Below, in pieces: positions 24,301 through 53,709 of a stretch of 64,000 bases of DNA. The stretch lies in the NCBI GenBank assembly GCA_963716725.1, contig CAVQUB010000021.1, positions 1 to 64,000 of the forward strand. The letters are read 5' to 3'. The translations under genes and the position numbers were made by a program. A model generated the notes under the pieces. That model was not told the origin of the DNA. It saw nothing but the letters and a program-made list of their open reading frames with translations, and searched no databases. The DNA is from an uncultured delta proteobacterium. GTDB taxonomy: Bacteria > Myxococcota_A > Polyangia > Polyangiales > Polyangiaceae. The first letter of the stretch is position 1; each line of letters starts with the position of its first letter.

Positions 24301-24316
24301 GGGAGGAAGCAAGCTG

Positions 24317-28229: not shown

Positions 28230-28312
28230 GCCACGGCAGTGCCGCGCGTGGTAGCCGCCGCGCCGTGCGGCTCGCGTCGCTCACGCCTTCCCGTATGATG
28301 GTGCCCAGTCCG

Positions 28313-31300: not shown

Positions 31301-31396
31301 CGCCACGAATCAGAGTGCCCGATGGCGATCACGTGGCGACTGCACTTCCCGCTCCCGGGTGACCTCTTCACCACCTTTGCGGCGGCGGTGGCGTGA
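28313..31396 (+). CDS. PLD nuclease - SF2 helicase - DUF3427 protein (SauUSI-like type IV restriction enzyme)
   Basis: LHAKAW...VGSSNLT (PLD), ATGTGKT, VDEFHH, GLTATP, QQLGRGLR, C-terminal YRDYAIS...IHWESQ. Confidence 0.88.
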   Translation: MPALPRGLYEQLLTEALAGRLQEVDARSPLTADLRAAEAADRIALHVSRIVERAVARHPEKERVAAGLSLALRVLEQIDAVVAQGESPVAPASILRAVRSILPDGTPEELADPLLPLLDTTLLTNAPGEPRVGSQVLTEIASADQIDVLMAFIRRSGIAPLLDALRRHCNAGRNLRVLTTTFTGSTERRALDALRELGAQIRVSYDTHTTRLHAKAWLFHRRSGYSTAYVGSSNLTHSGQVSGLEWNVRASAARNAAVVDKVAAVFESYWESGDFLPYDPEEFAGRVEQASASGSTVVLSPIEVRLEPFQERMLERLAFARAGGHHKNLLVSATGTGKTVMAAVDYARLRENLPRDRLLFVAHRREILEHALATFRHALRDPAFGELWVGRHRPQRFEHVFASIQSLDAADLADLDPAHSDLVIVDEFHHAAARTYRAFLDHVRPRELLGLTATPERSDGLPVLDWFEGRIAAELRLWDAIDQHRLSPFAYYGIHDGLDLRDVPWRRGSGYDVAGLTNLLTANDVWARQVISQLVARVDDPSAMRALGFCVSTDHARFMARVFREAGIAATAIWADSPEKERHAALTDLAARRVNAVFSVDLFNEGIDVPVVDTLLFLRPTDSPTLFLQQLGRGLRRSRDKTECTVLDFVGHHRREFRFDRRFRALLGGTRKDLIEAVEKGFPFLPAGCHMALDSVARDIVLASVRQGIPSHWSAKVDELRRLASSVGPHVTLEQYLEETDLDLDDAYAANRSWSDLRAAAGLPIAPSGAHEPVLRRAIGRLLHIDDQGRIDGYRRLLSSDFAPEVAGLAERDRRLLRMLVASITDRAVDRAATLEEACALLWAHPQVLAEIRELLALLRARIDRIHPALSTHPDVPLAVHGRYSRIEILAAFGVDDRAKVAAWQTGVRHLKEQAADLLAFTLDKTSGQFSPTTRYRDYAISRDLIHWESQSVVREASDTGLRYQRHAAEGSSIFLFARLRADERAFWFLGPARYVRHESECPMAITWRLHFPLPGDLFTTFAAAVA

Positions 31397-31406
31397 GAGC
31401 GGCGCC

Positions 31407-32621
31407 TCACGCATATTCGATCCGAACCGTCTCGATGATGGTCTTCATCGCGGCCTTCACCACCTCGGTGTCCGGATCGCGCACGATCACGTAGCCGTCG
31501 CCTTCGTAGCTGTCCTTGCGGGGGGTGCCGAGCTTGGGCAGCCGGCTCTCGACCACGAGCCGACCCACCCCTTCGTTGGCGCGGTCGACGCCGGTGATCC
31601 GGGCGACTCGGCCGCGGCCCATGCCGCGCAGGTAGGCAACACCGACCGCGAAACGGCGCTCGTAGGGGCCATCGAAGGCCTCGTCGATCACCGCGCGCGC
31701 CCAGGCGCGATACATGTCCGCGTCGTGCACGTAGCTGTTCGCGAGCACCATCTGGGCTCCCGGGGGACGAGCCGCGACCTCGCCGATGGCCAGGCCGCCG
31801 TCGCTGCGGCGGAACCACTCCATGTGCGTGAAGCCGGTGTCGAGACCAAGGACGCGTACGCAGCGCACTCCGAGCTGCCGCGCGTCGGCGAAGTCGGGAC
31901 CGCTGATCACCCGGGGCAACACCACCACCCACTGGATCCAGGGATTCTCGACGACTTCGAGGGGCGTCGGGTAGTACCGGCTGATGGACTGGAAGCGGAC
32001 CTCGCCGCCGACCGTGATCGTCTCGAAGCTGTGCTCGCTGCCCACCAGCAGCTCTTCGGCGAGAGCGGGTCGGGTCGGCGACGCGGCAATCGCAGTGAGT
32101 GCGGCGCGAAGTTCGTCGCCGGTGCGCACGCGCCAGGTCGCAGCGCAGGCCATGCCCGCCGGGGGCTTGAGCACCATCGGTAAGCCGACCTCGCCGACGA
32201 AGGCCTCGGCGTCCGCCCAGGAGTGGATCAGGCGGTGTCGCGCGCAGGGCAGGCCGTGCCGGCGGAGCTCGTCCTTCATGCGGGCCTTGTCGCGGAACAA
32301 ATCCGCGGTGGCGGGGTCGGTGCCGGGCACCCCCAGCGCTCGGCGCACCTCACCGAGCTGAACCTGGAGCGGCTCGAGGATCCCAAGCACCCGGTGCAGC
32401 TTGCCGTGCCGGCGCTGGAGCAGCTGCGCGGCCTCGATCAGCTGTCGGCTGTCGAGCCCGTCGGCGACCTGGACCTGGTCGGCAAAGAGGGCGCGGCTCT
32501 GGCCCGCCACCAGCTCTTGACCGATGCCGAGCAGACGCACACCGCTGACGGCCGCCGCCGCGCGGGCGAAGCGCAGGGTGGTTTCCAGTGGAAAGGGCGC
32601 GACGAACACCACATTTCGCAT
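31407..32621 (-). CDS. ATP-grasp ligase
   Basis: MRNVVFVAPF; FRDKARMK, VLKPPAG, THMEWF, GEVAARPPG. Confidence 0.88.
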   Translation of the reverse strand: MRNVVFVAPFPLETTLRFARAAAAVSGVRLLGIGQELVAGQSRALFADQVQVADGLDSRQLIEAAQLLQRRHGKLHRVLGILEPLQVQLGEVRRALGVPGTDPATADLFRDKARMKDELRRHGLPCARHRLIHSWADAEAFVGEVGLPMVLKPPAGMACAATWRVRTGDELRAALTAIAASPTRPALAEELLVGSEHSFETITVGGEVRFQSISRYYPTPLEVVENPWIQWVVVLPRVISGPDFADARQLGVRCVRVLGLDTGFTHMEWFRRSDGGLAIGEVAARPPGAQMVLANSYVHDADMYRAWARAVIDEAFDGPYERRFAVGVAYLRGMGRGRVARITGVDRANEGVGRLVVESRLPKLGTPRKDSYEGDGYVIVRDPDTEVVKAAMKTIIETVRIEYA

Positions 32622-32644
32622 GCGTTGCCTTGTACCATCAGCCC
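32622..32644. promoter_or_regulatory. Putative bidirectional leaderless promoter
   Basis: 23-bp gap between divergent ATGs; TACCAT on + and TACAAG on - share the same TA pair and lie 6-7 nt before each ATG; no SD sequence. Confidence 0.5.
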
Positions 32645-33862
32645 ATGAAGGTCGTCTTCCTTGCACCGAGCTACCCGCCCGAAATGCAACAGTACACGCG
32701 GGGTCTCGCCGAGGTCGGCGCGGAGGTCTACGGAGTCGGCGACACGCCACGGACGTCGCTGCCGTCATCGCTGAAGCAGCACCTGGCCGACTACCTGCAA
32801 GTGCCCCGCATCCTCGACGAAGAAGACGTCGTGGCGCGCGTGAGCGCGTGGCTGCGCGGACGCGAAGTGGATCGCGTGCTGGCAAACTGGGAGGTCGCAG
32901 TGCTGACCGCCGCGCGGCTCCGCGAGCGCTTTGGAATGCCAGGCATGAGCGTGGACACGGTGCGTGGCTTTCGTGACAAGCAATTGATGAAGGAGCGCGT
33001 CAGTCGCGCCGGGTTGCGGACGCCGCGGTCGGAGCGAGTGCGCACGTCGACCGAGACGCGCGCCGCGGCCGCGCGCATCGGCTACCCGCTGATCTCGAAG
33101 CCCATCTCGGGCGCTGGCAGCGCCGACACCTTCAAGGTGCGGGACGCGAGCGAACTCGAGAGCGCGTTGGTCAAGATGCAGCATGTAGAGGTCGCCAGCT
33201 GTGAGGAGTACATCAGCGGCGAAGAGTTCACCTTCGACACGGTTTGCGTGGGCGGCGTGCCGCTCTACACCAACGTCGCGCAGTACCTGCCGCCTCCGCT
33301 GCTCGCGCGTAGCGAGGAGTGGATCAGCCCCATCATCATCACGGTGCGCGACATGGACCAGCCGAAGATTGCCGCCGGAGTAGCCCTGGGCAAGCAGGTG
33401 CTCGGCGCGCTGGGCATGGGCGACGGCTTCACCCACATGGAGTGGTTCCGCAAGCCCGATGGCGAGGTGGTGTTCGGTGAAATCGGCTGCCGGCCCGGCG
33501 GAGCGAACCTGGTCGACCAGATGAACTACACCGGCGACATCGACCTGTTCCGCGAGTGGGCTCGGGCCGTGTGCTGGGGCCGCTTCGATGCGCCCACCCG
33601 CCGCAAGTACAACGCAGCCATCATCTTCAAACGGGCCAAGGGCCAGGGCCGAATCACGCGCATCGACGGGCTCGGCTCGTTCATGCGCAAGTACGGCGCT
33701 CACGTGGTGGAAGAACGGTTGCTCAGGCCCGGCACGCCGCGCCGCAACTGGAAGCACACCCTGATCTCGGACGGGCATATCATGCTGCGTCACCCCGATT
33801 GGGAGTCGACCTACGAGATGGCCCAGGCCGCAGCGACCGAAGTGACACTCTGGGCCGAGTGA
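32645..33862 (+). CDS. ATP-grasp ligase
   Basis: MKVVFLAPSYP; FRDKQLMK, ISKPISGAGS, THMEWF, GEIGCRPGG. Confidence 0.9.
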   Translation: MKVVFLAPSYPPEMQQYTRGLAEVGAEVYGVGDTPRTSLPSSLKQHLADYLQVPRILDEEDVVARVSAWLRGREVDRVLANWEVAVLTAARLRERFGMPGMSVDTVRGFRDKQLMKERVSRAGLRTPRSERVRTSTETRAAAARIGYPLISKPISGAGSADTFKVRDASELESALVKMQHVEVASCEEYISGEEFTFDTVCVGGVPLYTNVAQYLPPPLLARSEEWISPIIITVRDMDQPKIAAGVALGKQVLGALGMGDGFTHMEWFRKPDGEVVFGEIGCRPGGANLVDQMNYTGDIDLFREWARAVCWGRFDAPTRRKYNAAIIFKRAKGQGRITRIDGLGSFMRKYGAHVVEERLLRPGTPRRNWKHTLISDGHIMLRHPDWESTYEMAQAAATEVTLWAE

Positions 33863-33872
33863 CGCGCCAACG

Positions 33873-34634
33873 TCACGCCCTTGGCGGCCCATGCGGCCGG
33901 CCTTCGACCCAGCGTCGGTAAGCTGGGGGCGGAAAGAACGCCAGGCCGATGCACAGCGCCGAGATCGTCGCGAGCAGCGAGACGGTGCTCAGCGCCCACA
34001 CGTGCGCGCGGAGCCCTGTGCCGTAGACCAGACGATGCACGATGCTGACGGAGAAACCCAGGGAGGAGCTGCCGATGCCGATGCCCCAGAGCGCCACCCG
34101 GTTGACGACGAGGGGCTGGGCCAAGCCGATGCGCTGGCGCAGGCGCAGGTTGTGGTGCAGCCGAAGGCATTCGATGGCCATCCAGGTCGGCGCCGCGCCG
34201 CGGGCCGCGAGAGCGAGCGGCACGTAGGGGCCGGTGATCGGGGTCAGATCCGAGTAGCGGAGCAGCTCGCCCGACAGCGCTTCCCCGACGAATGCCAGCG
34301 CGATCAGGGCGGTCAGCGTGCCCGCGAGGGCGCCGGCCCACGCTTCGCGCGGACGAAAGACCCGCCATGAGAACGCGATCAGCGCGACGTCGCCAATGCA
34401 CTCGATGGAGAGCCCGATCATGGTGAGGACTTCCCGCTGCTCCACGGTGCCTTCGACGAAGAGCTTGCCGGCCGTCCCGACTGCGTAGGCGAGAAAGCCG
34501 ACGCAGAGCATGGCGACGGCCAAGAGCAGCTCCGGGAGCTTGCGCGTCCGCCACCAAAGCGCGAGCACTCGCAGGCCCACCAGCAGCGACGTGAGCATGA
34601 AGAGCACGAGCCCGCTGACGCTGATGACGCTCAC
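33873..34634 (-). CDS. Integral membrane protein, about 7 TM helices
   Basis: Repeated hydrophobic segments; overlaps the upstream small gene. Confidence 0.7.
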   Translation of the reverse strand: MSVISVSGLVLFMLTSLLVGLRVLALWWRTRKLPELLLAVAMLCVGFLAYAVGTAGKLFVEGTVEQREVLTMIGLSIECIGDVALIAFSWRVFRPREAWAGALAGTLTALIALAFVGEALSGELLRYSDLTPITGPYVPLALAARGAAPTWMAIECLRLHHNLRLRQRIGLAQPLVVNRVALWGIGIGSSSLGFSVSIVHRLVYGTGLRAHVWALSTVSLLATISALCIGLAFFPPPAYRRWVEGRPHGPPRA

Positions 34635-34966
34635 TTTCGGCCCCGCCTGGTGGTGTCGGACTCGAGTCGGTCGAAGAGCTCGTAGGCGGTGTCCTCGTGG
34701 GTGTCCGGACGGGAGGCGCCAACCACGACCAGGTCATGGCAGAGCGCCCGGCAGAGCGACGCGGCGTCGTCCACCTTGCGTTTGGCGAGGGCGGCGGACA
34801 TCAGGCGTTCGAGCACCACCAACATCTGCCGGGAGGTCACGCTGCTCGGGTCGAGGCCCACGTCGCGCAGCACCAGGCGCACGGTGCCGCGGGCCTCGAG
34901 CGCCGACATTTTGGTGCGCGCTTCGAGTTCCGCGCACACCCACTCGAATGTGTTCGAACCGGTCAC
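34631..34966 (-). CDS. Small hypothetical protein
   Basis: FEWVCAELE...LEARGTVRLVL; coupled to the membrane protein gene. Confidence 0.6.
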   Translation of the reverse strand: MTGSNTFEWVCAELEARTKMSALEARGTVRLVLRDVGLDPSSVTSRQMLVVLERLMSAALAKRKVDDAASLCRALCHDLVVVGASRPDTHEDTAYELFDRLESDTTRRGRK

Positions 34967-34994
34967 GGGCTTGAAGCCGGAAGCGTAACCCGAG

Positions 34995-36665
34995 TCAGCC
35001 TCTCGGAGCGACCGCCGTGACCGACCCGTCAGGGGAAATGCGGAGGCCGAGGACGCCTCGCTCCCCGGACAGTTCGAGCAGCAAAACGGCAGCGGAACGC
35101 CGCGCGACGAGGTTCATGGAGACGACGCTTCCGGCCAGCACCCGGCGCCCCGACGACACACCGTCGTCGAACACGAGCAGGTCCGTCGCGGCCGGCAGGC
35201 CCCCGGGATCGGCGAGCCGCGCTCGGATCCCCCGGCTGGCCGAGCGCCAAACCACCAGCAGCTTGCCCTCGAGACCGGCGGCGACGACCTCGCCCGACCG
35301 TTTGCCGGTCGGACGGATCGCGTCCGGCGCGCCGTCGAGCATGGCGTCGACTTCGATCTCGCTGCTCACGCAGCCGAGCTTGGTGCAGATGGCGTGCTGC
35401 GCCACGTAGCCGATCGTGTCGGTGTCCGAACGCTTGCGTGATACCTCCACGACCCGAGTCAGCGTGACCGCGCTCCCGCTGCACGAGAGAGCGCGCGCCC
35501 CAGCCTTGGCGTCCGCGCGCAGCTTCGCACGATGCACGGCCGAGGCGGTCTCGCCGGACAAGAACACGACGCGGGAATCCGAGCCGCGCGAGAGCACCAC
35601 GGCCAGCTCTTCCTTGGTACGACAGCCTTCGATGCTGTCGGGCACCAGCTCGATCACTCCGTGATCGACGGGCTTTCCGAGCCCGAGCGGCTCGCGCGTC
35701 AGCGCAGCGGACATCAAGTGATCCCAGTCGTCGTCGTGACCCCGCGCCACCCACACCATTCGGTCCGAGAACAGGCCGAGCCGCTTGAACGACAGGTCGA
35801 GCTCGAGGGGGGTGTCACGCTTCGCGCCCGTCCACGACGAGAGCCTCCACCCCCGATCGGGCTGCTCCGAGGGTTCGAGGGTGACGAAGGAGTCTGCTCC
35901 GTGCGTGTGGGCGTACACGGCGCGATCCGGACTTTTGGCATCGAAGAGCGTGCCGGTGTCGGCGCGGAAGAAGCGCTGCACTCGGCTGTCAGGCAGCAGG
36001 TGATCGCTGATCCATAGCGACCCGGCCTCGTCTCCGGGGGGCCAGAGCACGAAACCCTGGGCGCCAACCGGCGCGTGCTTTGCCAGCGATCCACAGCTCG
36101 CAGCGTCGAGCCGCTCCGAGAAGGAGCAGAGCTTGCTGCGTCCGATGACCAGGTTGAGGCGCGCGCTGGGCACGGGATCGCTGGTGGTCCCCGCGAGCGT
36201 TGCCCGCTCGGCGATGAGCGGCAAACTATCGTCGGGGGCAGCTGCGGCTGGCGGCGCTCTAGGCACGTCGGGCGCTGGCTCGACTCCGGCCACGAGCGCC
36301 GGGATGCTCAGCGCCGTCGGCTCGCGTTCGAAGCGCCCGAGGTCGAAGCCTTTGCCCCAGGCCGCGCGCACCTCGGAAGCGTCGGCCTTCTGCCCCGCGC
36401 GCTCGAGCGCTTCGGCAAGACGGGTCGCCACCGCATCGCATCGCGCCGGCCAATCCGCGGGCGGTCCGCCGATCATGATGCGGTGCAGGCGAAGCTCCGC
36501 GCCTTCGCCCGCCGCGAGGGGCGCGCCCAAGAGACAGTGCGCCAAGGAAGCGGCGGCCACCTGCGCGGCACGAGTCGCTCGCTTCGCCATGAACAGCCAA
36601 GCACCCACGCCGCAGGCGGCGAGCAGCACGACGGCGACGACCCCAGCCACGACTCGCCTCGACAT
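34995..36665 (-). CDS. Membrane-anchored hypothetical protein
   Basis: N-terminal TM/signal; 556-aa ORF; TATCAT 7 nt before the ATG. Confidence 0.65.
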   Translation of the reverse strand: MSRRVVAGVVAVVLLAACGVGAWLFMAKRATRAAQVAAASLAHCLLGAPLAAGEGAELRLHRIMIGGPPADWPARCDAVATRLAEALERAGQKADASEVRAAWGKGFDLGRFEREPTALSIPALVAGVEPAPDVPRAPPAAAAPDDSLPLIAERATLAGTTSDPVPSARLNLVIGRSKLCSFSERLDAASCGSLAKHAPVGAQGFVLWPPGDEAGSLWISDHLLPDSRVQRFFRADTGTLFDAKSPDRAVYAHTHGADSFVTLEPSEQPDRGWRLSSWTGAKRDTPLELDLSFKRLGLFSDRMVWVARGHDDDWDHLMSAALTREPLGLGKPVDHGVIELVPDSIEGCRTKEELAVVLSRGSDSRVVFLSGETASAVHRAKLRADAKAGARALSCSGSAVTLTRVVEVSRKRSDTDTIGYVAQHAICTKLGCVSSEIEVDAMLDGAPDAIRPTGKRSGEVVAAGLEGKLLVVWRSASRGIRARLADPGGLPAATDLLVFDDGVSSGRRVLAGSVVSMNLVARRSAAVLLLELSGERGVLGLRISPDGSVTAVAPRG

Positions 36666-36695
36666 CGGGGCGATGATAGCGCCGAACGCCGAAGC

Positions 36696-37820
36696 TCAGG
36701 GTGAATCGCAGTCGCTCAGCTCGCTGAGCGGGACCAAGAGCTGCGCATCGTCCGCGAGCTTCAGCCACCGCGCCTGGGGAACGGACACCTGGACGAGGGC
36801 CATCCGCTCTTGACGGCCTGGCGGATCGGCGCCCGGAGGCGCCGCCGGCGGCTCGAGGCTGTTGAAGAACGTGCCCTTGCGAATGATGCCGATCTTGGCG
36901 CGCGCCCCGCCGGCCTCGGCGACGAGCGTGAGGTCGCGAGCGCACTTGCGATTGCCTCGCGCGCTCGAGGAGCGAGACCCGAATCTTCCAAGCCCGATGC
37001 CGTAGCCGCTGCCGCCTCGCCGAGGGCCGAGGTCTGCCGAGGCGACCCAACCGAAGAGCACGAAGCTCGAAGCATCGACCAAGATCCTGGTGTGGAGCCC
37101 GCGAACCTCGACGACCTCGACTCCGATGCCCTGCCGAAGCCGCGCCGAAGCCGTCCCAGCGCGCTCCGCCGAGAGCTCGGCGCCAGCCCGGGCGACGTCG
37201 CGTTCCGTCAGGTTCTTCCGCCGGGTGACGTGCTCGCGCGCCGAGTATTCGACGGCGTTCAACACGATGAGCTCGCAGGCAAGGCGATCCGTCACCAGCT
37301 CCGGCGATTCGAGCAGCTTGCTCGCGTCGAGGCCCACATCGAGTGAACCCGCCGCACCACCCACCCAGGTCAGCGCAGCCGACGACTTGGGGACTAGGAT
37401 GCCTGCCAACGCGTGGGCCTTCGCAGCGCGCAGCGTCACGTCCGCTTCGCGCGCGAAACCCCTCACGATCAGCTGTCCGTCATCGAACACCGCCGTCGGC
37501 GCCGCGGGCGCACCCGCGGGCATGACCAAGGTGACCGGCGCGTTGGTGACGCTCGCAAACGCGGGTCCACCCTGGCGGATCAGCAAGCTCGACAGTGACC
37601 ACTGCTTCTCGACGATGCGGCAGGCGACGCTCGCGGGCTCGTGCACCACGGGCAGAGTCGGCACGGCGTCGACGGGGGACGTCTCGGCCCCGGCGCTGGC
37701 GGCCGGAAGGGGGATCTCGATCTTGGTGGGACCCGGTTCGCCGCTCGGAGCTGGCGCTGGCCCTCGCGCCGCGCAACCCGAGATCGCGACGGCGGTGAGC
37801 GTCCACGCCGCGCTCCGCAT
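36696..37820 (-). CDS. Putative lipoprotein
   Basis: Lipobox ISGC followed by a Pro-rich linker. Confidence 0.65.
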   Translation of the reverse strand: MRSAAWTLTAVAISGCAARGPAPAPSGEPGPTKIEIPLPAASAGAETSPVDAVPTLPVVHEPASVACRIVEKQWSLSSLLIRQGGPAFASVTNAPVTLVMPAGAPAAPTAVFDDGQLIVRGFAREADVTLRAAKAHALAGILVPKSSAALTWVGGAAGSLDVGLDASKLLESPELVTDRLACELIVLNAVEYSAREHVTRRKNLTERDVARAGAELSAERAGTASARLRQGIGVEVVEVRGLHTRILVDASSFVLFGWVASADLGPRRGGSGYGIGLGRFGSRSSSARGNRKCARDLTLVAEAGGARAKIGIIRKGTFFNSLEPPAAPPGADPPGRQERMALVQVSVPQARWLKLADDAQLLVPLSELSDCDSP

Positions 37821-37825
37821 GGTCT

Positions 37826-38746
37826 TCAGTCCACCGCGCGCCCGACGAAGAATCCGTCGGAACCCAGCGCCTGATAGAGCGGCAGGAGCACCAGGCAGTC
37901 GTTGGGCGCTCGGATTTCTCCGCTGCGGTCCCGCGCGATGAGCGTGCCCGCGGTGGTGGGATGAATGGTGGTGAACCCGGGCTCCATCCTGAAGTCGTGA
38001 TCCGGCGCCACGGCGTGGCGCGAGAGCACCTCGATCAGCTTGGGCAGAGCGCCCCGGGCCCGCTCGAGTACCGCGTTTGCGTCGTCGATCTCGGGCAGGT
38101 GCTGCTTCGCAAAGACCCCGCTCGCCACCAAGGCGACGGTCACCGCGGCGACCAGGTGGTCACGCGCCTTGGCGCCATCGTGCTGTCCGCCCTCCACCGC
38201 AAAGGTCACGCAGCCACGCCGGCCGAGGTAGCTCGTGAGCACACCGGGGAGCTGGCTCTCGAGGCCCACCATGCACGGCAGCGCAAAATGCGAGGCGAAG
38301 GCCCGATGCTCTTGGGTGGGACCCACGACGCCGAAGGGCGTGCCTTCGGAAGAGGTCGTGTGCAGGTCGAGCACGTACACCGGACCGCGGGCGCGGGCCA
38401 TGATGGCGTCGATGGCATCCGCTAGCTCTACGGTCTCGTGGAACTCGGCCTCAGCCGGATCGTCCGTGGCGGCAGCAACCATGCCGCGCGCCTCGACGAC
38501 GCGGTCTTCGGTCCATTGGCGGTTCAGATCGCGGTCGAGATAACGTCTCCGCGCGACCAGCGCCCGAAGGTTGCCCGCGAGCGCGATGACCTCACCCACC
38601 AGCGGCGTCTTGTCGTGCCGGAGGCGCGACAGCACGATGCGCGCCGCTTCCATGCCGGCGGGCTCGTTGCCGTGCAGCCCACCGACGAGGATCAGCGTTG
38701 GCCCCGGCGCGCTGCCAGCGATGCGATTGATCTGTCGAGCGGTCAA
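37826..38746 (-). CDS. Succinylglutamate desuccinylase/aspartoacylase family (M14) deacylase
   Basis: GGLHGNE, DLNR, LDLHTTS, AVEGGQH. Confidence 0.9.
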   Translation of the reverse strand: MTARQINRIAGSAPGPTLILVGGLHGNEPAGMEAARIVLSRLRHDKTPLVGEVIALAGNLRALVARRRYLDRDLNRQWTEDRVVEARGMVAAATDDPAEAEFHETVELADAIDAIMARARGPVYVLDLHTTSSEGTPFGVVGPTQEHRAFASHFALPCMVGLESQLPGVLTSYLGRRGCVTFAVEGGQHDGAKARDHLVAAVTVALVASGVFAKQHLPEIDDANAVLERARGALPKLIEVLSRHAVAPDHDFRMEPGFTTIHPTTAGTLIARDRSGEIRAPNDCLVLLPLYQALGSDGFFVGRAVD

Positions 38747-40739
38747 AGATCGTCCTCCTGGCTCGGACCGAGCAGACTACCAGCGTCCACGAAGCTCTTG
38801 AGCTCCGGCTCGCGGACCGGGCTGATCCCCAGCTTTTGCTCGATCAGCTTGTGAGCGATGGGCAAGAAGTCCTCGGTGTTGACGATGCCGACCAGGCGCT
38901 CGTTCTGCAAGACCGGCAGGCAGCCGATCCGGTAGCGCTGCATCAGTTTCAGCGCGTCGAGAGTGTCCGTCTCGGGCGTAATGGTCTTGACCTCGCGGCG
39001 CATGATCTTGGACACGGGAGTGTCTTTGGTGGAGCCGCCGGCCGCAAGAAAGCGCAGCAGGGACCGGTAGCTGACCAGCCCGATCAAGCGGTGGTCCTTG
39101 TCTTCCACGGGGATGTGCCGCAGCCGCTCCCAGTCCATCAGAATGTTGACCATCTCGACCGGGTCATCCGCGTGGACCGTGAACAGATCCGTGGTCATGT
39201 ACTGATCCACTTTGAGATAATTGTGGTGCGAGGCCGACGCCTCGTCGAGGCGAGCGCGTTCCCATTCGGCGACCGGACGCCGAGTGAGCTGTCGCTTGAC
39301 CGTGGCCGCGACCAGGGCGTTGGCCTTCTCGCCGGGGGTGCCCTTGTCTTTCAGCGCGTTCCACGACAAGAGCTGCCAGCGCGCGCCGGTGCGCGTGCTG
39401 CGAACACGCGCGTCGACGACGCCAAGGTAGCGCTTGATATCTGCCTCGTCGACCTTCTGGCGCCGGAGCCCGGACTCCGCGATGGGCAACAGCTTGTCGA
39501 GCACGAGAGGAACAGCAGCGACGTCCTTGCCGTCGAGCCAGCTGAAGGTCGAGCCGAGCCCCTCGCGGGCGGCGGTGTAGAAGTTCGAGCCCGCCGCGTC
39601 GAAGTCCATCCGTTTGTCGGCCTCGAAGCCCCGCGCCCCGAGCTCCGCCATCATCCCGAACCAGAAGGCTCCGTTCGCGACCTCGTCGACGACGCTGGGC
39701 CCCGCGGGCATCACGCGGTTCTCGATGCGCAGGTGCGCCTTGCCGTCGGTGACGCCGAAGCAGGCGCGGTTCCATCGGTAGATGGTGCCGTTGTGCAGAC
39801 GCAGGGCCTTGAGCTGCGGCAGCTCGCCGCGGTCGAGGACCGCCATCGGGTCTTCGTCGAGGTCCGTGCCGACGAGCGTGCGGAAGCGCGCGATGTCTTC
39901 CTGGAAGATCTCGACGATGGACTTGCGCACCCAGCGCGTGCCGAAGCTGACCCGGGCCTCGCTCTCGCGCAGGTGCAGGTGTGGCTGCGCGTGTCGACCG
40001 CCTGTCGGAAGAGCGCGATGCGCGTCTCGGCCCACAGCCGGCGTCCGAACAGGAGCGGCGAGTTGGCCGAGATCGACATCATGGGCCCGGCCAGGAGCTG
40101 CGCCAGGTTGTACATGCGCGCGAACTCCGCCGGCTCGACCTGAAGGTGGACCTGGAAGCTCGAGTTGCAGGCCTCGACCATCACCGAGTCGTGCTCGATG
40201 ATGAGCTCGTCGAGCCCCTTGATGGAGATCTCGAACTTGCCGTCGCGCAGCTCGTGCATCGACCTTGCCGAGGGTCTGGTAGCGCGGGCTCGGCACCATG
40301 TTGTCCAGGCCGAGGTCGCTCTTGCGCATGGTCGGCAGGATGCCCATCAGCACCGGCTGCAGGTCGATCTCCGCGGCGGCCTTGCGCGCCTTCTCCATCA
40401 GCTCGTCGAGCTGCCTCTCCATGCGCGAGAGGCCATCGCCCGCCAGCGGCTGAGGATCGCAGTTCGCCTCGAGCTGGAACAGGCCGAGCTCGGTGGTGAA
40501 GTGATCGTCGTCCAGACGCTTCGAGCATCTCGAGGGCGCCCGGCGCCGGGGCCCAGGCCTGATCGACCAGGAACATCTCCTGCTCGGCGCCGATGCGCCG
40601 CACGCCGGTCTCGAACAGACCCTCCTTCAGCATGCGCTCGAGCGCGCGCAGATCCCCGAGAATCGCGTGCGGTGAACTCCCGGCGCTGCTGCGCGTCACT
40701 CTCGGGGTCCACCGCTTTGTGTGATCTCGTAGTCGTCAT
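38743..40739 (-). CDS. Glutamate-cysteine ligase (GCS2-type carboxylate-amine ligase) fused to a CBS pair; frameshifted
   Basis: RIGAEQEMFLVD, SFQVHLQV, ANSPLLFG, HNGTIYRWNR, HLRIENR; C-terminal YMTTDLFTV...RHIPV...IMRREV...GCLPV. Confidence 0.88.
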
Positions 40740-40752
40740 CCCCAGCCCCGTC

Positions 40753-41493
40753 TCACTTGGTCCATTCGGTCGAGGTACTGCGGCAGCATCTTGCGCCAAG
40801 TCACCCAGTCGTGGTGCCAGTCGCGGCCCCACGAGTCGACTCGGTTGGGGATGCCCTGCGACCCAGCGTGTTCGCCATCGCCCACGACTCGCCGATGTCC
40901 TCGGCGCGACCCTCGCCGCTGCACATCAGGATGAAGCGCGTGCGCAGCACGTCGAGGTGCCGGCCGGCCAAGCGTCGGCACGAAGTGGAGCGGCGACGAC
41001 ACCCAGAACTCGTCGCTGAAACTCGCTCGGCGTCGTAGAAGCGACGAAGGTCGTAGGTCCCGCTCATGGCGAGCGCGCGGGAGAAGACGTCGGGGAAGCG
41101 GCACACCATCGCGACCGCGTGGAACGCGCCGATCGACGCGCCGGCGGCCCAGATCTCGATGTCCGGCGTTCTTGCAGTCGGCTCGGATGGCCGGCACGAC
41201 CTCGTGTCTTGATGTAGTAGTGGAACTGGTTCTGCATCCACATCTGGTGGCGGGCGGAGCCCGCGGCGCCCGAGCAGCGCTTGCCCGGCCACGCTGTCGC
41301 ACGAGTAGACCTTGATGCGTGCCGGCGTCGAGCAGCGGCGCGAGCGCGTCGATCATGTGGAAGCGCTCGATCTCCTCGGCGTCGCCGCCGGCGGTGGGGA
41401 AGATCAGCACGGGCTGCCCGAAGCTGCCCCACCGCAGCGAGCGTGACCTCGCGCTCGACAGCGCGGCGAGTACCAGCGCTCGACGGTCTTCAT
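40753..41493 (-). CDS. Alpha/beta-hydrolase esterase; frameshifted
   Basis: FPTAGGDAEE, GASIG nucleophile elbow, WHHDWVTWRKML. Confidence 0.85.
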
Positions 41494-42762
41494 GCTCGCG
41501 GCTGCCTGCCTGCGTCGGCGCGCCACGTTCTGGACCCGATTCCAGAACAGCTCGGTGAACTGCTCGACCTCGTGCGCCGGGAAGAGCGCCGCGACCTTCT
41601 TGCGGACGGCGTCCTTCGCGTCGGGCGTGCCGAAGAACTCCCAGGCGACCTCGTCGAGGTGCGGCAGGTGCTGCTGCGCAGAACTCCTCGAAGCGCGCCG
41701 TCTCGAAGCGCTCCTCGGCGATGCGCCGCGTAGGCGCGCGAGCTTGTCGCGGTAGGGCATGCTCCGCATCGGCCGCGACCTCGTAGAAGGGCGCCCAGTC
41801 CAGGTTCATGCGCAACGGGCCGCTTCGTCACCGCGCAGAAGATCGCACCAGCGGATGTTGGCCTTCACGCAGCCACGGGAAGTGGTAGTGCAGCGACGTC
41901 ACCTGCGAGTCCGGGCAGGGGTTGGCGAAGTCGATGGGGTACCAGACGCCGTCCTTGCGCAGCGACTCGCAGGAGTTGAAGTCCCAGCCGAAGAACGCGT
42001 TGATGGTCAGCGTGATGTCGCGCAGGGGCTGCGCGTCGTCGCCGGCGAGGAAGTCGCCTCTTGGTCCATGGTGTAGCGGTCGTGGAGCGGCGCGTCGGGG
42101 TCGTAGCGCACGATGCGGGTCTGCGGGCCGAGGCCGATGCAGCGCACGAAGCGGTCGAAGGGCTCGCACCGCCGCCTGCAGGTGCATCACCAGCTTGCCG
42201 CTCTCGTCGTAGCGCCTTGCGCAGCGCCGCCTCGTCGTCGATGCGGCTCACCGCCCTCCAGCCGCCGCCGTCGTAGGGCTTCATGAACATCGGATAGCCG
42301 AGCGTTCGCCCGATCTTGCCGAGGTCGAAGAGCTTGGCGTAGCTGCTGGAGCGTCGGCTTGCAGGTCCGGCAGCGGCTCGTAGCTCTTCGGCGGCACCAT
42401 CCAGGTCTCGGGGATGGGCATGCCGAGGTGCATCATGGCGCAGTAGGTCGTGTGCTTCTCCATGGACTGCACGGACCACGGGTTGTTGAACACGTAGAGG
42501 CCGTCCATGAGGATGGCCTTCTTGATCCACTCGCGGCTGGTGTGATACCAGTGCGTGAGCCGGTCGAGCACGACGTCGTAGCGGCACGGCTGGCGCAGAT
42601 CGAAGGGCTCGATGGTGACGCGCTCGACCTCGAAGCCGACGCGTGTCGCCCTGCCAGTCGGGATGGCGAGGTCGAGCTGCTGCAGGATCTGCTCGTAGCA
42701 GAGCGGCCAGCAGATGTCGGCGCCGAGCGAGAGGCCGATGTGCGCGTGACGATCGTCGCCAT
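41490..42762 (-). CDS. ATP-grasp protein (RimK/glutathione-synthetase-like); frameshifted
   Basis: LDRLTHWY, FNNPW, YPMFMKPYDGGGW, FNSCE, IDFANPCPD. Confidence 0.82.
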
Positions 42763-42776
42763 CGATCGTGTTCCCT

Positions 42777-43920
42777 CTACTCGTAGACGAACAAGCAGCG
42801 GACCGGGGAAGAGCCAGGACAGGCCCTCGCGCAGGCGGTCGCGCCAGTTCTCCCAGTTGTGACCGTCGCGCGCCTCGACGAAGCGCACGTCCATGCCGGT
42901 GGCCTGCGAGCAGCGGCGACGAGCGAGCGGTTCTCGTAGATCAGCGACTCGTAGATGCCGCAGCTCACGAAGATGCGCTCGGAGATCGGCGATCGGGCCG
43001 CGCCCGGAGCTGGTTGACGAACTCGACCACCGGGTCGAAGAGCGGGCCGCGGTGGTTGCGGTCGCCGATGTCGGTGAAGGCGAACGAGCCCGACTGCAGC
43101 AGCAGCCGCCCGAAGAAGCCCGGGTAGCGGCACGCGGTGGAGAGCGCGGCGACGGCGCCGAAGCTCGCGCCCATCAGGCAGCGCGCCTGCGGTCGACGTC
43201 GAGCGGGAACGCGCGCTCGAGCTGCGGCACCAGCTCGTCGGTCGAGGAAGCGCGCGTGGCGCTCGTCGTTGGCGTACTCCACGAGCCGGTCGGGCGAGCT
43301 CGTCAGCGCCACGATCATGTCGGGGATCTCGAGGCGGTGCGATCAGGTTGTCGAGGATGGTGCCGAGCGCCGCGTAGCGCAGGTAGTCGTGGCCGTCGTG
43401 CACGATCAGCAGCGGGTAGCGGCGAGTCCTGCGGAAGCGCGCGGGCAGGTAGATCTCGAGCCGGCGCCGGCCGAAGACCTTGGAGTCGAGCACGAGCTCG
43501 TCGATCTGCCGGGTCGCGACTCGGGATCGGGGTAGATCCAGGTCGGGACCTCGTAGCCCTCGCCGTGCGCCACCGAGTTCGCGCCGAAGGGGTCGCGGGC
43601 TGGTTGCGGGGTTGAGCGGATCCTCCATCCACTCGCCGTTGCCGCCCGCGAACGACCTCGAGCTTGTACTCGACCCGCGAGCTGGGCGGCAGCTCGAGCG
43701 TCAGGTACCAAACGTCCGTGCCGTCGACGCGGGTGAGCTGCTGGGACGACGGCAGGCCGAAGACCCAGTGCTTGAGGTGGATGGCGTCGGCGTCGCCGCG
43801 GAAGACGAAGGTGATGGCCGGCCCCTCGACGATGGGGAAGGACCTGCCCGCGAAGAAGGCATCCACCGCCTCGGCGGTGCGCGGGCCCTGGGCGAGCTCA
43901 GTGATGGCGCGGGCGCTCAT
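42777..43920 (-). CDS. Esterase (enterochelin-esterase-like) with a probable N-terminal CBM48/early-set domain; frameshifted
   Basis: ITFVFRG...WYLTLELP...VEYK...DPLNP; YLP...YPLLIVHDG; GASFG; DGHNWENWR. Confidence 0.82.
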
Positions 43921-44850
43921 CCGGACCATCCCCGCTCGATGGTGCCGTCGCCCCGAGTCGGCGGCAGATGGCGCTGGCAGACGCGGCCCTCTGCGACGTG
44001 CACGCGGGCGCCCGTGTCCATCGCCACGCAGGTCGCCGGCGCGATGCGCTGCACGAAGCGCGCGATGCCCGCCGCGTCGTCGAGTCCGAATTCGACGCCG
44101 CGGATCGGGCAAGCACAACCAGGTCGTTCACCAACCCAAGACCACGGTCGAGGATCTCCGCGATGCCGGTGCCGTGGGGTGGAAAGTCATGGAACAAGTA
44201 GATGCGTTCGGTCAGCACCATGGCGCCGGCCGCAGCGGCGAACCAGCGCTTGTCCTTGGCGAGGCCGACCAGGTCGAAGAGTTTCATCCGATTCAGGAGC
44301 GAGACGACGTGGCCGCCCATGACCACGATGGCCTCGACGCCCCGCAGAATGTCCGCGAGCTCGGCGCGGTGCTGGGCGACCGCGGGGCGCTCGGCGAGGC
44401 GCCACTGCTCCTCGAATCGCTCGTGAGCGGTCTGACAACGCTCGAGGTGATCGCCGTCGAGTTGTTCGAGGGCCTCGACTGACTCGTGACGCTCCTCGGC
44501 CAGGAGATCTTCGTCGACGTGTCGGACCGAGATGGCGTGTGCCGCTTCGAACTGCGTGCTCCAGCCGGATGCGGTAGAAGTCGTTGACCAAGCGCAGGCG
44601 CGCCTGCTTGCGACTTGTGCGCCGCGGAAAACTCGGGATCGGCCGCGAAGACCTGCTCCGAGCGCGCGTGCAGCGTGAGGTTTACGAGCTTCGATCGCCG
44701 ATGCTCTCGATCAAAGCTTGGTCGTCGGCCTCGCGCTCCTGCCAGCCGGCGGTGACCAGCGCCACCGGCCCACGAACGCCAGCGATCGCGAGCGCCGCGC
44801 CGACGTCGGGGACGGGTTGCTGCGGACCGAGCAGAACTACGTTGGGAACG
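43898..44850 (-). CDS. Peptidase S51 / class I glutamine-amidotransferase-like protein; frameshifted
   Basis: VALVTAGWQERE, IVVMGGHVVSLLNR, AAGAMVL, LGLV; the usual nucleophile Ser position reads Ala. Confidence 0.6.
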
Positions 44851-44854
44851 ACGC

Positions 44855-46082
44855 TCAGTTGGCCCACACTTTCACCGTCTGACCGACGATGTCGAACATG
44901 CGCCGGAGCTCGTCGTAGTTCTCGTGCTTCAGCCGCAGCCAGGCGTTGGCCATGTAGCCAGCCTCGACGGGCTGCGTGCTGCGTGCCTGGCGGCGGGGTA
45001 TGCGCGTCGATGATGTGCTGACCGAAGGACTTTCCGATGGCTTCCAGCCCTTCGTAGCCGCTGATGCGACCATCTTGGCTGGGGCGCAGCGCGATGATGC
45101 CGGCCGACAGTCTCCGCGACGGGCGCTGGCTCGGCCGCCCGTGGCAGATGGTCATCGCCCACTCGCGGTAGAGGTCCATGTCGTTGCCGACGTTGTAGAG
45201 ATCCCACGCGCGCACGCCCGGCGGGCGGCAGCCGATCTCCGAGAACTTGAGGCCCTTTGGCCCGAAGAACCACTCCATGTGCGTGGCCGAGGTCTCGATG
45301 CCGAGCAGCTCGATGACCTTGCGACCCATCGCCTTGACCTCGTCGTAGCCCGAGGCCGAGTCGATGCGATTGGTGGCGATGAACTGCGGCGAGATCCAGC
45401 GCGTGCGCATGGCCTCGAGCACGTTCGGGTAGTAGTGCGTGACGAACTCGTGCACGACCTGCCCGCTCGATGCTGAGCGTGTCGTAGAAGCCCTCGTGGC
45501 CCTCGATGAACTCCTCGACGGCGATGGAGCGGCCCGGCTGCCCAAGGCGAGAAGCCGCCCAAGATCTTGCTCAAGTCGGCCAGGCTGTCGGCTCGGTAGG
45601 CCCCGGAAGCTCCGGCCGCGTCGCGCGGCTTCAAGATCACCGGGAAGCCGATCTGCTCCACGAAGGCGCGCACCTCAGCCACGCTCGACGCGCCGGTGGA
45701 TGCGCGCAAGACACCCCGCCAGCGCGCAGCGCCTCTTTCATCGCCGGCTTGTCGCGGCACAGGAAGGCCGTCCGCACCGAGGTGCCGGGGATGCCTGCGG
45801 CCTCTCGCACCTTGGCGATCGGCATGATGTGCGCCTCGACGGTGGCCTCGAGGCGATCGACGTGGGCCCGCTTCTGGATGAAGCGCAGCGCTCGCAGCAC
45901 CGCGCCCTCGTCGCAGACGATCCGACCTCTTCGTAGTGCAGGAGCCAGCGCTTGAGCTCGTCGTCGAGCGAGTCCTTGCTGCCCTCGCCGATGGCCGTGA
46001 CCGTGGCGCCGACCTCGGCGAGCGCTCGCACGAAGAGCTTCTGGTTGCCGGGAAAGCGGGGCTCGATGAAGACGACGTGCAT
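44855..46082 (-). CDS. ATP-grasp ligase; frameshifted
   Basis: MHVVFIEPRFP; CRDKPAMK, ILKPRDAAGA, THMEWF, SEIGCRPPG. Confidence 0.88.
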
Positions 46083-46127
46083 GGCGGTTTCTTTCACGAA
46101 GGAGTCGCGACGATCAAGGGCTTGATT

Positions 46128-47584
46128 TCACAACCTCTGGAGTCGCTCGTAGAGCTGTTCGTACTGTTTGGCCTGCACCGCCCACGAGAAGTCCTGCGCC
46201 ATGCCGTTTTGCATGAGCCTTCCTCCAGGTGGCGGGGTCTTTGTAGTGCGCAAGGGCGGCCTCGATGCCCCAAGTGAGACCCTGAGCGTCGTGGTTGCTC
46301 GAAAGGGAAGCCCGTGCCGCGCCCCGTGCGTGAGTTGAAGAGCTGCACCGTGTCGGCGAGCCCGCCGGTCTTGTGCACGATGGGCACGGTGCCGTAGCGC
46401 AGACTGTAGAGCTGGTTGAGACCACAGGGCTCGTAGCGCGAGGGCATCACGAACATGTCCGCGCCGGCCTCGATCAGGTGCGCGAGCTCGTTGCTGAAGC
46501 CGCGGTAGAAGCAGACCTGCCGGGGGAAGGTGCGCTGGAGTGCGCCGAACATCTCTTCGAGGTGGTGCTCGCCGCTGCCGAGCAGGACGAACTGAAAGCC
46601 TGGCGCCGCAGCAGACGGCCGAGCACCCCCGCCAGGAGGTCGAGCCCTTTCTGGCCGACCATGCGCGTCACCGAGCCGATGACCGGCGTGCCGCGCCGGT
46701 ACTCGAGGCCGAGCGCGCCGAGCAACGCCGCCTTGTTGCGCTCTTTGCCGGACAGATCCGTCGCGCCGTAGGCGGTGCGGAATGAAGCGGGTCGTGCTCG
46801 GGGCTCCACTCGTCGTAGTCCACACCGTTCAGGATGCCGACCACCGTCGATTTGCGCATGCGCAAGAATGGATCGAGGCCGGCGCCGTGCTCGGGCGACT
46901 GGATCTCTCGCGAGTACCTCGGGCTCACCGTGGTGATCCCGTCGGCGTAGAGCACCCCGTGCAGGAGGAAGCTCAGGCGACCCTCGCTTCAGGTAATCCT
47001 GATGGAACAGGTGCGCGGCGCGCCGCCAGGCCGGTTTCGGGCAGCACATGTGCCGGGAAAATGCCCTGGTATTGCAGGTTGTGGATGGTGAGCAGGCTGC
47101 GCGCACGGGAGAGCAAGGGATCCCGCGCATAGCTGCTCTTGAGCGCGAGCGGGACGAGGGCGGTCTGCCAGTCGTGGCAGTGCACCACGTCGGGCGCGAA
47201 GCGTAGCCGGCGGCAGGCTTCGAGGGCGGCAAACGAGAGCACGAGGAAGCGCAGATGCTCATCCCCGTCGGCGGTGTAAATGCTGGAACGGGAGAACAGC
47301 TCGGGGCTGTAGACGAAGTAGATCTCGAGGTCGGTCCCGGGCAGGATAACGCTGGCGATGCCCACGCTGAAGCGGCGGGACCCGAGCTGGATCTGCACGG
47401 GTCCGAGTCCAGGCAGCGGCCTGAGGCGGTATTTGCGTTGATCGATCTGCGCGTAAGCCGGCAAGAACACGCGCACGTCGTGGCCGAGCCTGTGCATCTG
47501 CCGCGGCAACGCGCCGAGCACGTCTGCGAGCCCCCCCGTCTTGGCGAATGGCGCCATTTCTGGCGCGATGTACAGGAGCCGCAC
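46128..47584 (-). CDS. glgA: Glycogen synthase; frameshifted
   Basis: EMAPFAKTGGLADV, HCHDWQT, TIHNLQYQG, MPSRYEPCGLNQ, TGGLADTV. Confidence 0.95.
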
Positions 47585-47766
47585 GGGAGCCGCACGATGA
47601 CACAAGACCGAGCGCGCGTCCCATCCGTCGCGGCTCGAGGGCTGATTCTCCCCGGGAACAGCGCTCGCACCGGCGCGAGTTGCGGGCGAAGGGGCGGGCT
47701 CGAGCCCGCGCTCCCCGCACTGCCGTTGATGGGCACGCCACGCCGAGGCAGAATGCGCCGGGGTAG

Positions 47767-49305
<1,539 letters not shown>

Positions 49306-51227: not shown

Positions 51228-51458
51228 CGCTCGGCGTCACGAGGGAAAGAGCACCGCATCCCCATTTCTTTCTTGACGCGGTTCCAGGCGACTCGGGCTC
51301 GCACTTCGCCGGGCATGTCACCGAAGGCCTCTCTGTTGCGCGACGAAGCTCGCCCATCGTGTTTCGCTCGAGCGACGACGCGCGACGCGTTTGGACGCGT
51401 GAAACGCGCTCACCGTGTCGGCCGCGAGGCCAAAAAACAGCGTGTTATGCCAGAAAGC

Positions 51459-52742: not shown

Positions 52743-53709
52743 GACGGTTCGTGCACACCCCCGACAAAGGGGGGTGCACGGGATGCCGCCTTTGGTCCCG
52801 GCAGCGGCAGCGCCGCGGGCACGGGACGCGGCGCCCGACTTCGACAGGCCCATCGTGAGCAACTCGGCTGGGGGCGCATCGATCTGGACGCGCAGGTACC
52901 TCACGACCACCCCGTGCGTGCCATCGCCGCGGTGATCGACCGCCTGGACCTCTCGAAGCTCTACGCTCGCATCGATGCACGCGACTCGAACCCCGGAGCG
53001 CCGGCCATCGACCCCAAGCTCTTGCTCAGCCTGTGGGTGTACGCCACCAGCGACGGCGAGAACAGCGCTCGGGAGATCCAGCGCCTGACCGAGCTGCACG
53101 CCGCCTATCGGTGGCTGTGCGGCGGGGTGAGGCTCAACCACCACACGCTCAGCGACTTTCGCAGCCACAACGCCGAGGTGTTCGACGACCTGATCACGCA
53201 GGTGCTGGCCTTGCTCATGAGCCACGACCTGGTGGACCTCATGCGTGTCGCGCAGGACGGCACGCGCGTACGGGCCAGCGCCGGAGCGTGTTCTTTTCGC
53301 AAGGGCACCACGCTGGAGGCTCTGCGCCAGGAAGCTCGTGCACATCTGGCCGCGGTCACGGCAGACACCGAGAGCGGCTCGCGGCGAGCCGCGGCGCAGA
53401 AGCGTGCGGCCCAGGATCGCCTGGACCGGCTCGACGCGGCGCTCGCGCAGTTGCCCGGGGTCACGAAGACCAAGAGCAAGAGCGGCGCCAAGGACCCGAC
53501 CCCTCGAGTGTCGACGACCGATCCGCAGGCACGGGTGATGAAGATGGGCGACGGAGGATTCCGGCCCGCCTACAACGTGCAGCTCGCCACGACCGCCGAC
53601 GACGCGCGGGTCATCGTCGGTGTCGCCGTCACCCACCGCGGCAGCGACATGGGCGAATCGACTCCGATGCTAGAGCAGATCGAGAAGCGGACGGGCGTCC
53701 GGCCACTAG

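Follow-up and report, generated by a model that had tools for sequence, protein, structure and literature searches.

A set of carboxylate ligases and hydrolases encoded beside a glycogen synthase gene in an uncultured delta proteobacterium of the Polyangiaceae belongs, in the reading that we favour on balance, to a widespread and undescribed cytoplasmic enzyme system that would build and break its product by joining and cleaving amino-acid-type units and that is genetically tied to alpha-glucan (glycogen) synthesis. The genes lie at 31.4–47.6 kb of a 64,000-nucleotide stretch of DNA (positions 1 to 64,000 of contig CAVQUB010000021.1, assembly GCA_963716725.1; hereafter the window) having a base composition of ~68% G+C. 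The module consists of four ATP-grasp ligases plus three hydrolase-type genes, to which some lineages add a GCS2 ligase and an AstE/AspA deacylase. At least two phylum-level groups carry it within or next to glycogen loci, and one of its members is >50% identical across the whole family. Glycogen metabolism is among the best-studied bacterial pathways, and the conservation of the module together with its glg setting points to an unrecognized part of storage metabolism, in which either glycogen would be chemically decorated or a second reserve would be kept alongside it.

Organization of the gene cluster

Genes were called from Pfam matches to the open reading frames (ORFs) of the window and from a third-position GC frame plot. 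The ORFs scanned with Pfam cover ~16–64 kb. Intact stand-in proteins were taken from a same-genus genome (G005, locus L009), which is collinear with the window at 79–83% nucleotide identity; these orthologues were scanned with Pfam and NCBIfam and their positions in the window were obtained by tblastn. Every G005 gene of the run is intact, and by tblastn each has a counterpart in the window, with the gene order preserved. The features are listed below in order of transcription, with orthologue lengths in amino acids (aa).

46131–47605, minus strand: glgA, ADP-glucose-type glycogen synthase of family GT5 (490 aa); tblastn pieces, broken by indels in the window
44858–46118, minus strand: ATPg_D, L-amino-acid-ligase-type (LAL-type) ATP-grasp (421 aa); THMEWF at 45284; frameshifted
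43920–44850, minus strand: S51-like protein of the PepE/cyanophycinase fold family (309 aa); weak PF03575 match; frameshifted
42777–43975, minus strand: EstN, E-set/CBM48-like N-domain plus PF00756 serine esterase (394 aa); frameshifted
41505–42759, minus strand: ATPg_C, RimK/ArgX-like ATP-grasp plus C-terminal helical domain (416 aa); frameshifted
40760–41505, minus strand: Est244, small PF00756 serine esterase, paralogue of the EstN catalytic domain (244 aa); frameshifted
38743–40736, minus strand: GCS2-family carboxylate-amine ligase with a C-terminal CBS pair (GCS2-CBS, 665 aa); 5' third frameshifted
37826–38746, minus strand: AstE/AspA-family zinc deacylase, M14-related (AstE306, 306 aa); PF24827; intact
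33873–37820, minus strand: four predicted envelope genes; hydrophobic N-terminal stretches; no family match
32588–33862, plus strand: ATPg_B, LAL-type ATP-grasp; THMEWF at 33431; intact
31407–32621, minus strand: ATPg_A, LAL-type ATP-grasp, divergent from ATPg_B; THMEWF at 31829; intact
39977–47025, no strand: stretch of 75 small indels relative to the orthologous G005 locus; probable unpolished assembly

The run thus reads glgA, ATPg_D, S51-like, EstN, ATPg_C, Est244, GCS2-CBS, AstE/AspA, the four envelope genes and then the divergent ATPg_B/ATPg_A pair, entirely on the minus strand save for ATPg_B. The content and order from glgA through AstE/AspA had been proposed in a first-pass annotation made from the letters of the window, and both were borne out by the Pfam and tblastn results. 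The two additional ATP-grasps that the annotation placed about 4 kb farther on are present and carry THMEWF, but ATPg_B lies on the plus strand, divergent from ATPg_A. There are indeed four ATP-grasps, as claimed, but the THMEWF signature occurs only three times in the window (33431 plus, 45284 minus and 31829 minus); ATPg_C lacks it and belongs to a different family. In G005, successive gene ends of the run overlap or abut, which suggests translational coupling.

Conservation of the module and its linkage to alpha-glucan genes

Orthologues were counted in 401 Myxococcota genomes, 40 ATPg_C-centred loci of which were used for gene order, and in a second phylum-level group (301 genomes, 20 loci), this being the GTDB phylum of a metagenome-assembled genome (MAG) recorded as Planctomycetota. 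A separate set of 79 GCS2-centred loci was used for the neighbourhoods of GCS2-CBS and for the envelope-gene insert. The alpha-glucan genes counted were glgA, glgC, a glgC-like nucleotidyl transferase, a GDE-type debranching enzyme, GH57 and a GT4/GT5 transferase.

ATPg_C orthologues are present in 92 of the 401 Myxococcota genomes and in 59 of the 301 genomes of the second group. Among cultivable bacteria, Labilithrix luteola has one, named AKJ09_10735. The S51-like protein, EstN and ATPg_C occur together in 28 of the 40 Myxococcota loci, where Est244 and between one and three ligases of the LAL type are usually present too, and in all 20 second-group loci, a few of which have unrelated genes between EstN and ATPg_C. 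In some lineages unrelated inserts divide the set into a LAL, S51 and EstN part and an ATPg_C, Est244 and LAL part. Judged from these gene orders, the conserved heart of the module is EstN, ATPg_C and Est244, accompanied by the S51-fold protein and one to three LAL-type ATP-grasps.

The complete gene set, which the first-pass annotation had treated as a single pathway, is not indivisible. GCS2-CBS orthologues are carried by 93 of the 401 Myxococcota genomes, and GCS2-CBS accompanies the core in only 31. Beyond the Myxococcota, GCS2-CBS is mostly found alone or with AstE, and given this distribution and the weak co-occurrence, the GCS2-CBS/AstE pair is best described as a separable module acquired by the cluster in certain lineages, that of the window among them. 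GCS2-CBS was considered as a marker of the cluster and rejected, since in most of the 79 loci from other phyla it is either solitary or has AstE as its sole companion.

glgA lies within 10 kb of ATPg_C in 11 of the 40 Myxococcota loci, in both co-directional and divergent orientations, and in 10 of the 20 second-group loci (46–55% identity). At least one alpha-glucan gene is present in 14 of the second-group loci, and in six of these alpha-glucan genes are found on both sides of the module. One second-group locus (L142) has the gene order of the window, GCS2-CBS and AstE included, whereas another arrangement (L145) reads ATPg_D, glgA, ATPg_A, ATPg_B, S51, EstN, ATPg_C, Est244, glgC-like, GDE and GH57. 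At least five distinct gene orders retain glgA adjacent to the module. The first-pass annotation had staked its proposal on conserved linkage with alpha-glucan genes in other genomes, and such linkage holds in both phylum-level groups.

The linked gene encodes a genuine glycogen synthase by family criteria. The G005 orthologue scores 523.8 bits against TIGR02095 (cut-off 328.45) over residues 9–486, and the tblastn pieces of the window glgA are 89–91% identical to that intact protein; because of its indels the window gene matches TIGR02095 only piecewise. In four of four relatives the cluster-linked GlgA is the better scoring of two GT5 paralogues, and glgC of those four relatives is located elsewhere in the genome. 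The genome to which the window belongs yielded no glgC; it contains a further GT5 gene that resembles glycogen synthase more weakly (G000:C15:221077-222423), with one in-frame TAG in the match.

A quick maximum-likelihood tree of ATPg_C (68 rows, SH-aLRT support, midpoint root) placed all 21 second-group rows together with 23 Polyangia-type Myxococcota rows in one clade (support 97), with the other Myxococcota forms outside. Twelve of the 23 Polyangia-type rows have glgA within 10 kb. This topology makes it likely that the glgA-linked arrangement was transferred horizontally, in one direction or the other.

The ATP-grasp ligases

The nearest solved sequences to ATPg_D are the L-amino acid ligase 4wd3 (RizA by title; E 1.8e-12), BacD and BL00235. 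LAL-type enzymes are known for acting on free amino acids. The LAL-type proteins of the module match ATP-grasp Pfam models at 28–38 bits (cut-off 27) and score 22.8–23.4 bits against LAL_C2, under the cut-off of 29.4. The family matches of ATPg_A and ATPg_B are like those of ATPg_D in Pfam and NCBIfam, the solved-structure search having covered ATPg_D. The three paralogues are 45–80% identical across the two phylum-level groups.

ATPg_C has no Pfam match. By sequence comparison it is the most conserved gene of the module, with identities of 52–76% within Myxococcota and 54–71% to the second group, and about one quarter of the columns are invariant across 37 Myxococcota orthologues. A library of 1.84 billion proteins clustered at 50% contains a single full-length representative (657 bits). 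The AF2 (AlphaFold2) model, with a predicted local distance difference test score (pLDDT) of 90.4, superimposes on RimK (4iwx) with Z 20.1 and a root-mean-square deviation (rmsd) of 2.9 over 266 residues and on ArgX with Z 17.8. The best structural matches are RimK, ArgX and LysX, followed by synapsin, the graspetide ligase PsnB and inositol-phosphate kinases. The modelled fold is that of a RimK/ArgX/LysX-type ATP-grasp, to which an extra C-terminal helical domain (residues 292–411 of the model) is appended. The likeness to RimK is one of fold only, the rimK_fam score being 24.1 bits versus a cut-off of 143.4.

Searches of solved structures by sequence gave nothing useful for ATPg_C, the S51-like protein or Est244, and tblastn of plasmid sequences gave no ATPg_C match. 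No unassigned ORF family that might represent a conserved carrier or precursor gene is common to more than 7 of ~67 loci. Likewise, no conserved candidate for a graspetide precursor peptide gene was seen among these unassigned ORFs, although very short or fast-evolving peptides could escape detection.

The esterases and the other hydrolase-type proteins

PF00756 was found in all 30 EstN orthologues and Enterochelin_N in 23 of the 30, and Ser268 and His368 are invariant in all. Both domains of the EstN model (pLDDT 87.3) match CBM48-CE1 feruloyl/acetyl-xylan esterases (Foldseek E 3.6e-24) and Fes (TM 0.67–0.71). With PF00756 and its Ser-His following an E-set N-domain, EstN has the makeup of the Fes/CBM48-CE1 group; its score against the NCBIfam enterochelin esterase model (105.9 bits) is under the cut-off of 222. 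The first-pass description of this protein as a CBM48-like esterase is supported in that the modelled two-domain architecture is that of CBM48-CE1 esterases and Fes, but the sequence match to CBM48 is weak. A PF02922 scan of five relatives gave 13 places, with open frames of 680–1004 aa, none of them at EstN loci. Profile comparison identifies Est244 as paralogous to the catalytic part of EstN (hhalign probability 97.2, E 4e-11); its His226 is invariant in 28 orthologues and Ser117 is kept in ≥90% of rows.

The junction between EstN and ATPg_C varies in length: ~18 bp in the window (42759–42777), 374 bp in G001, 794 bp of apparently non-coding DNA in G005 (L009 12751–13513), ~5 kb in L015 and ~6.6 kb in G002. 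The inserts were considered as a source of information and rejected, as their contents are unrelated kinases and exported proteins.

The S51-like orthologue of G005 matches PF03575 with E 4e-4, under the cut-off. The GCS2-CBS orthologue is a clear member of both of its families, scoring 40.2 bits against PF04107 (cut-off 21) and 91.1 bits, in two stretches, against the CBS model (cut-off 24); its tblastn pieces in the window are spread over three frames, and by sequence it matches solved structures through the CBS domains only. In one MAG locus (L032 9291–12839) the GCS2-CBS frame extends to 1182 aa, by fusion with the downstream gene or by read-through. AstE306 matches PF24827 with 70.8 bits in the window and 72.8 bits in G005 (cut-off 25) and contains the zinc and catalytic motifs HGNE and DLHTT. 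Its nearest solved sequences are AstE (1yw6) and aspartoacylase-2, and no CphZ chain is among its matches to solved sequences at E up to 0.01.

A build-and-break system and its alternatives

ATP-grasp and GCS2 ligases form an acyl phosphate, which is then coupled to amines or hydroxyls. The ATP-grasp fold is able to make esters, as in the D-Ala-D-lactate ligases and the graspetide ligases. Esterases reverse ester bonds, whereas S51 and AstE-type enzymes reverse amide bonds. By analogy with this chemistry the ligases of the module would activate carboxylates as acyl phosphates and join amino-acid-type units by amide bonds, in the case of ATPg_C probably by an ester bond. The esterases, plus the S51 or AstE hydrolases where these are active, would dismantle the product, the synthesis of which would run in step with that of glycogen. 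The core proteins have no N-terminal signal-like hydrophobic stretch that is obvious by eye (no predictor was used) and are therefore probably cytoplasmic. The most likely product, from these analogies, is an ester/amide compound derived from amino acids, which would be formed and taken apart on glycogen or next to it. An ester-linked, amino-acid-derived product is the best guess because a RimK-like ligase is paired with two esterases, the closest structures to which cleave sugar or amino-acid esters. The glucan could supply the hydroxyl for this ester, or a Ser/Thr-type residue in a separate oligomer could do so.

Within this favoured reading we give about equal weight to two versions, one with aminoacyl or peptidyl groups covalently esterified to the glucan and one with a separate small peptide or depsipeptide reserve. 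The first version is a tentative proposal when taken by itself: with the use of ATP, and reversibly, aminoacyl or peptidyl groups would be ester-linked to the glycogen of bacteria or to a related alpha-glucan in the cytoplasm. ATPg_C would form the ester between an amino-acid carboxylate and a hydroxyl of the glucan, the ligases of the LAL and GCS2 types would lengthen the ester-linked unit, and the CBM48-like EstN and its paralogue Est244 would remove the ester. If true, ester decoration of the glucan would be a covalent tie between carbon and nitrogen storage. Attachment to glycogen, energy sensing through the CBS pair and an acyltransferase role for the esterases, all put forward in the first-pass annotation, are conjectures. 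The module would also yield new ATP-dependent ligases for ester or peptide synthesis.

Several observations weigh against a glycogen-linked build-and-break system. The substrate and product are ones we infer from family chemistry. The sampled genomes are interrelated and hence are not independent samples. No glgA is present in the 20-kb neighbourhood of 29 of the 40 Myxococcota loci and 10 of the 20 second-group loci. Moreover, one second-group locus (L137, genome G444) and a Myxococcota contig (L097, genome G401) share 99.67% identity over 10,980 bp. A foreign contig has probably found its way into one of the two bins, and bin assignment can mislead; with L137 set aside, glgA is found in 9 of 19 second-group loci. 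Glucan binding by EstN finds little encouragement in its N-domain, which is marginally CBM-like by sequence: CBM_48 matched 3 of the 30 orthologues at E up to 0.1, CBM_20 matched 4 of the 30, and hhalign of the domain against CBM48 (P 0.015, probability 2.9%) is too weak to count as support. Fes, the best structural match of EstN, acts on a small molecule rather than on a polysaccharide. The window S51-like protein reads AAAAGAM and LPDPR, the putative Ser being replaced by Ala and the putative His by Asp, as throughout its genus. These residues, which we take to be catalytic from their spacing in PepE and CphB, are both kept in 32 of 63 loci, and the His is lost in most Polyangia-type relatives. 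The protein is probably inactive in this lineage, where it might serve as a structural partner, and the amide-hydrolysing role that the first-pass annotation gave to the S51 fold is weakened here. Finally, the 31 genomes that combine GCS2-CBS with the ATPg_C core compare with 21.3 expected (odds ratio 2.0, Fisher p 0.011, uncorrected for kinship).

A possible though doubtful alternative is a companion reserve of nitrogen or amino acids, cyanophycin-like and apart from glycogen, with adjacency to glg genes reflecting only co-regulation of reserves. The ATP-grasps would polymerize amino acids, and S51-type hydrolases, AstE/CphZ-type hydrolases and alpha/beta-hydrolase peptidases would degrade the polymer. 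An S51-fold protein and an AstE/AspA-family enzyme are both present, and the cyanophycin dipeptidase CphZ is itself an AstE/AspA-family member (PMC9974463). The ATP-grasps of the module also match the ATP-grasp region of cyanophycin synthetase weakly, at 31–37 bits, but with cut-offs of 850–877 no CphA-type synthetase is encoded. Moreover, the S51-like Ser and His have been lost in this lineage, AstE306 is without a CphZ match among solved sequences, AstE and GCS2-CBS are absent from most core-bearing genomes, and two Fes/CE1-type esterases would be left unexplained.

An alternative of another kind concerns the window itself, where the module could be decaying to pseudogenes. Between 39977 and 47025, comparison with L009 gives 75 gap openings over 7 kb, with 58 extra bases in the window and 17 missing. 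The frameshifts reported in the first-pass annotation are real in the given sequence, but they are limited to this stretch and look like sequence error; 31407–39900 reads open, the gaps before 39.9 kb being compensating pairs. We consider it highly probable, judging by the pattern of changes, that they reflect patchy, unpolished sequence rather than biology, and genuine decay is decidedly unlikely. Assembly error is the most likely cause because the third codon position is still where substitutions in the broken genes are concentrated. Relative to G005, third positions account for 57–69% of the substitutions in the broken genes and for 57–75% in four of five intact genes counted in frame; the value for the poorly conserved insert gene unk374 is 38%. 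Divergence from G005 is lower in the broken genes, at 13–15% in six of seven broken segments (22% in S51) versus 17–18% in intact enzyme genes. The preponderance of insertions (58 of 75) and the fact that nearly all of the indels are single bases outside homopolymers also speak against decay. So does the genome-wide occurrence of 5-kb blocks without long ORFs biased in third-position GC (GC3), which number 235 of 1551 here versus 6 of 101 in related loci, in an assembly that is 84% complete and in 35 contigs. ORF-poor patches of this kind probably depress the completeness estimate. Within the window, patches without long GC3-biased ORFs are also seen at ~10–15 kb and ~20–25 kb.

It is quite improbable that the genes are neighbours without shared function, that is, a small-peptide natural-product or osmolyte cluster which came to lie beside glgA by chance and co-travels with it by horizontal transfer. 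The modules are separable, glgA is missing from more than half of the loci, and the ATPg_C tree unites the glgA-linked Myxococcota forms with the second phylum, such that one transferred arrangement could explain many of the linked loci. Chance does not readily account, however, for the variety of gene orders that hold glgA beside the module, for the six loci in which the module lies between alpha-glucan genes, or for ATPg_C identities far above those usual for secondary-metabolite genes.

Tagging of a protein is very improbable: in this reading a glycogen enzyme would receive amino acids, at its C-terminus or on side chains, from the RimK-like and LAL-type ligases, and hydrolases would trim them, much as RimK acts on S6 or as in tubulin ligase/carboxypeptidase cycles. 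Although RimK, ArgX and LysX, the best structural matches of ATPg_C, act on protein C-termini and the AstE/AspA enzyme is M14-related, no conserved small carrier or target gene was found at the ~67 loci, Fes/CE1-type serine esterases fit such a cycle poorly, and LAL-type enzymes work on free amino acids.

Neighbouring genes

The ~4 kb from AstE to the ATPg_B/ATPg_A pair is filled by the four envelope genes, which encode a lipoprotein-like protein of 374 aa, an exported protein of 556 aa, a protein of 111–120 aa and a membrane protein of 253 aa. Their N-termini have hydrophobic, lipoprotein-like or multi-helix membrane stretches, and none of the four matched Pfam or NCBIfam. Among the 79 GCS2-centred loci they are present in only two, both of the same genus (L013, which is G005, and L014, which is G001). 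By this distribution they are a genus-specific insert outside the conserved module. The divergent ATPg_A and ATPg_B genes have probable start codons only ~23 bp from each other (window 32621–32645), which leaves hardly any space for two promoters.

Abutting the end of ATPg_A, positions 28265–31396 (plus strand) encode a 1043-aa protein having a PLD-type nuclease domain, a ResIII/helicase core and DUF3427. Ser/Thr protein kinase genes are found at 24119–25678 and 47767–49305, both on the plus strand; the latter begins ~160 bp from the glgA start, on the opposite strand. Mobile-element-like genes (an HNH-like protein, a DUF772 transposase and a PD-(D/E)XK nuclease) occupy 51273–54349. No other glg, tre or amylase genes were seen among the scanned window ORFs (~16–64 kb). 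None of 13 proteins matched the PADLOC anti-phage defence models at E up to 0.001.

Comparison with known systems

The statement in the first-pass annotation that no characterized pathway matches this gene set has stood: a literature search returned no paper describing the set or a matching pathway, the 2009 amidoligase survey considered next lying outside that search. In that survey Iyer, Aravind and co-workers (2009) reportedly predicted amidoligase/peptidase gene neighbourhoods, which are said to share with the module the general logic of clustering ATP-grasp and GCS-type ligases with M14-type hydrolases and which may bear on its novelty. In the part covered here of a 2024 review of prokaryotic alpha-glucan enzymes (PMC11046441), the words ATP-grasp, esterase, acylated and cyanophycin are absent.

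RimK, LysX and ArgX share the ATP-grasp fold with ATPg_C, but they differ from it in the C-terminal helical domain and in family score, and no LysW-like carrier gene was found at the ~67 module loci. The L-amino acid ligases RizA, BacD and BL00235 are the nearest solved relatives of ATPg_D by sequence; the difference is one of setting, as the three conserved paralogues of the module are embedded in primary-metabolism loci rather than in antibiotic clusters. EstN has the two-domain architecture and the Ser/His hydrolase core of Fes and the CBM48-CE1 esterases. Unlike these, it has no obvious signal sequence, is probably cytoplasmic, and is without siderophore or xylan genes nearby, being flanked instead by ATP-grasp ligases and glycogen genes.

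In logic, the closest described system is cyanophycin metabolism (CphA, the S51 enzymes CphB/CphE, and CphZ). There, as in the system proposed here, amino acids are joined by an ATP-grasp enzyme that is accompanied by a protein of the S51 fold and a hydrolase of the AstE/AspA family, in a context of reserve metabolism. In contrast to cyanophycin metabolism, the module has no CphA-type synthetase with a Mur-ligase-like domain (only the ATP-grasp region is matched), its S51-like protein is probably inactive here, and AstE306 is not close to CphZ. What the module has in their place is four ATP-grasps of two families, a GCS2 ligase and two Fes/CE1-type esterases, together with linkage to glgA and glgC.

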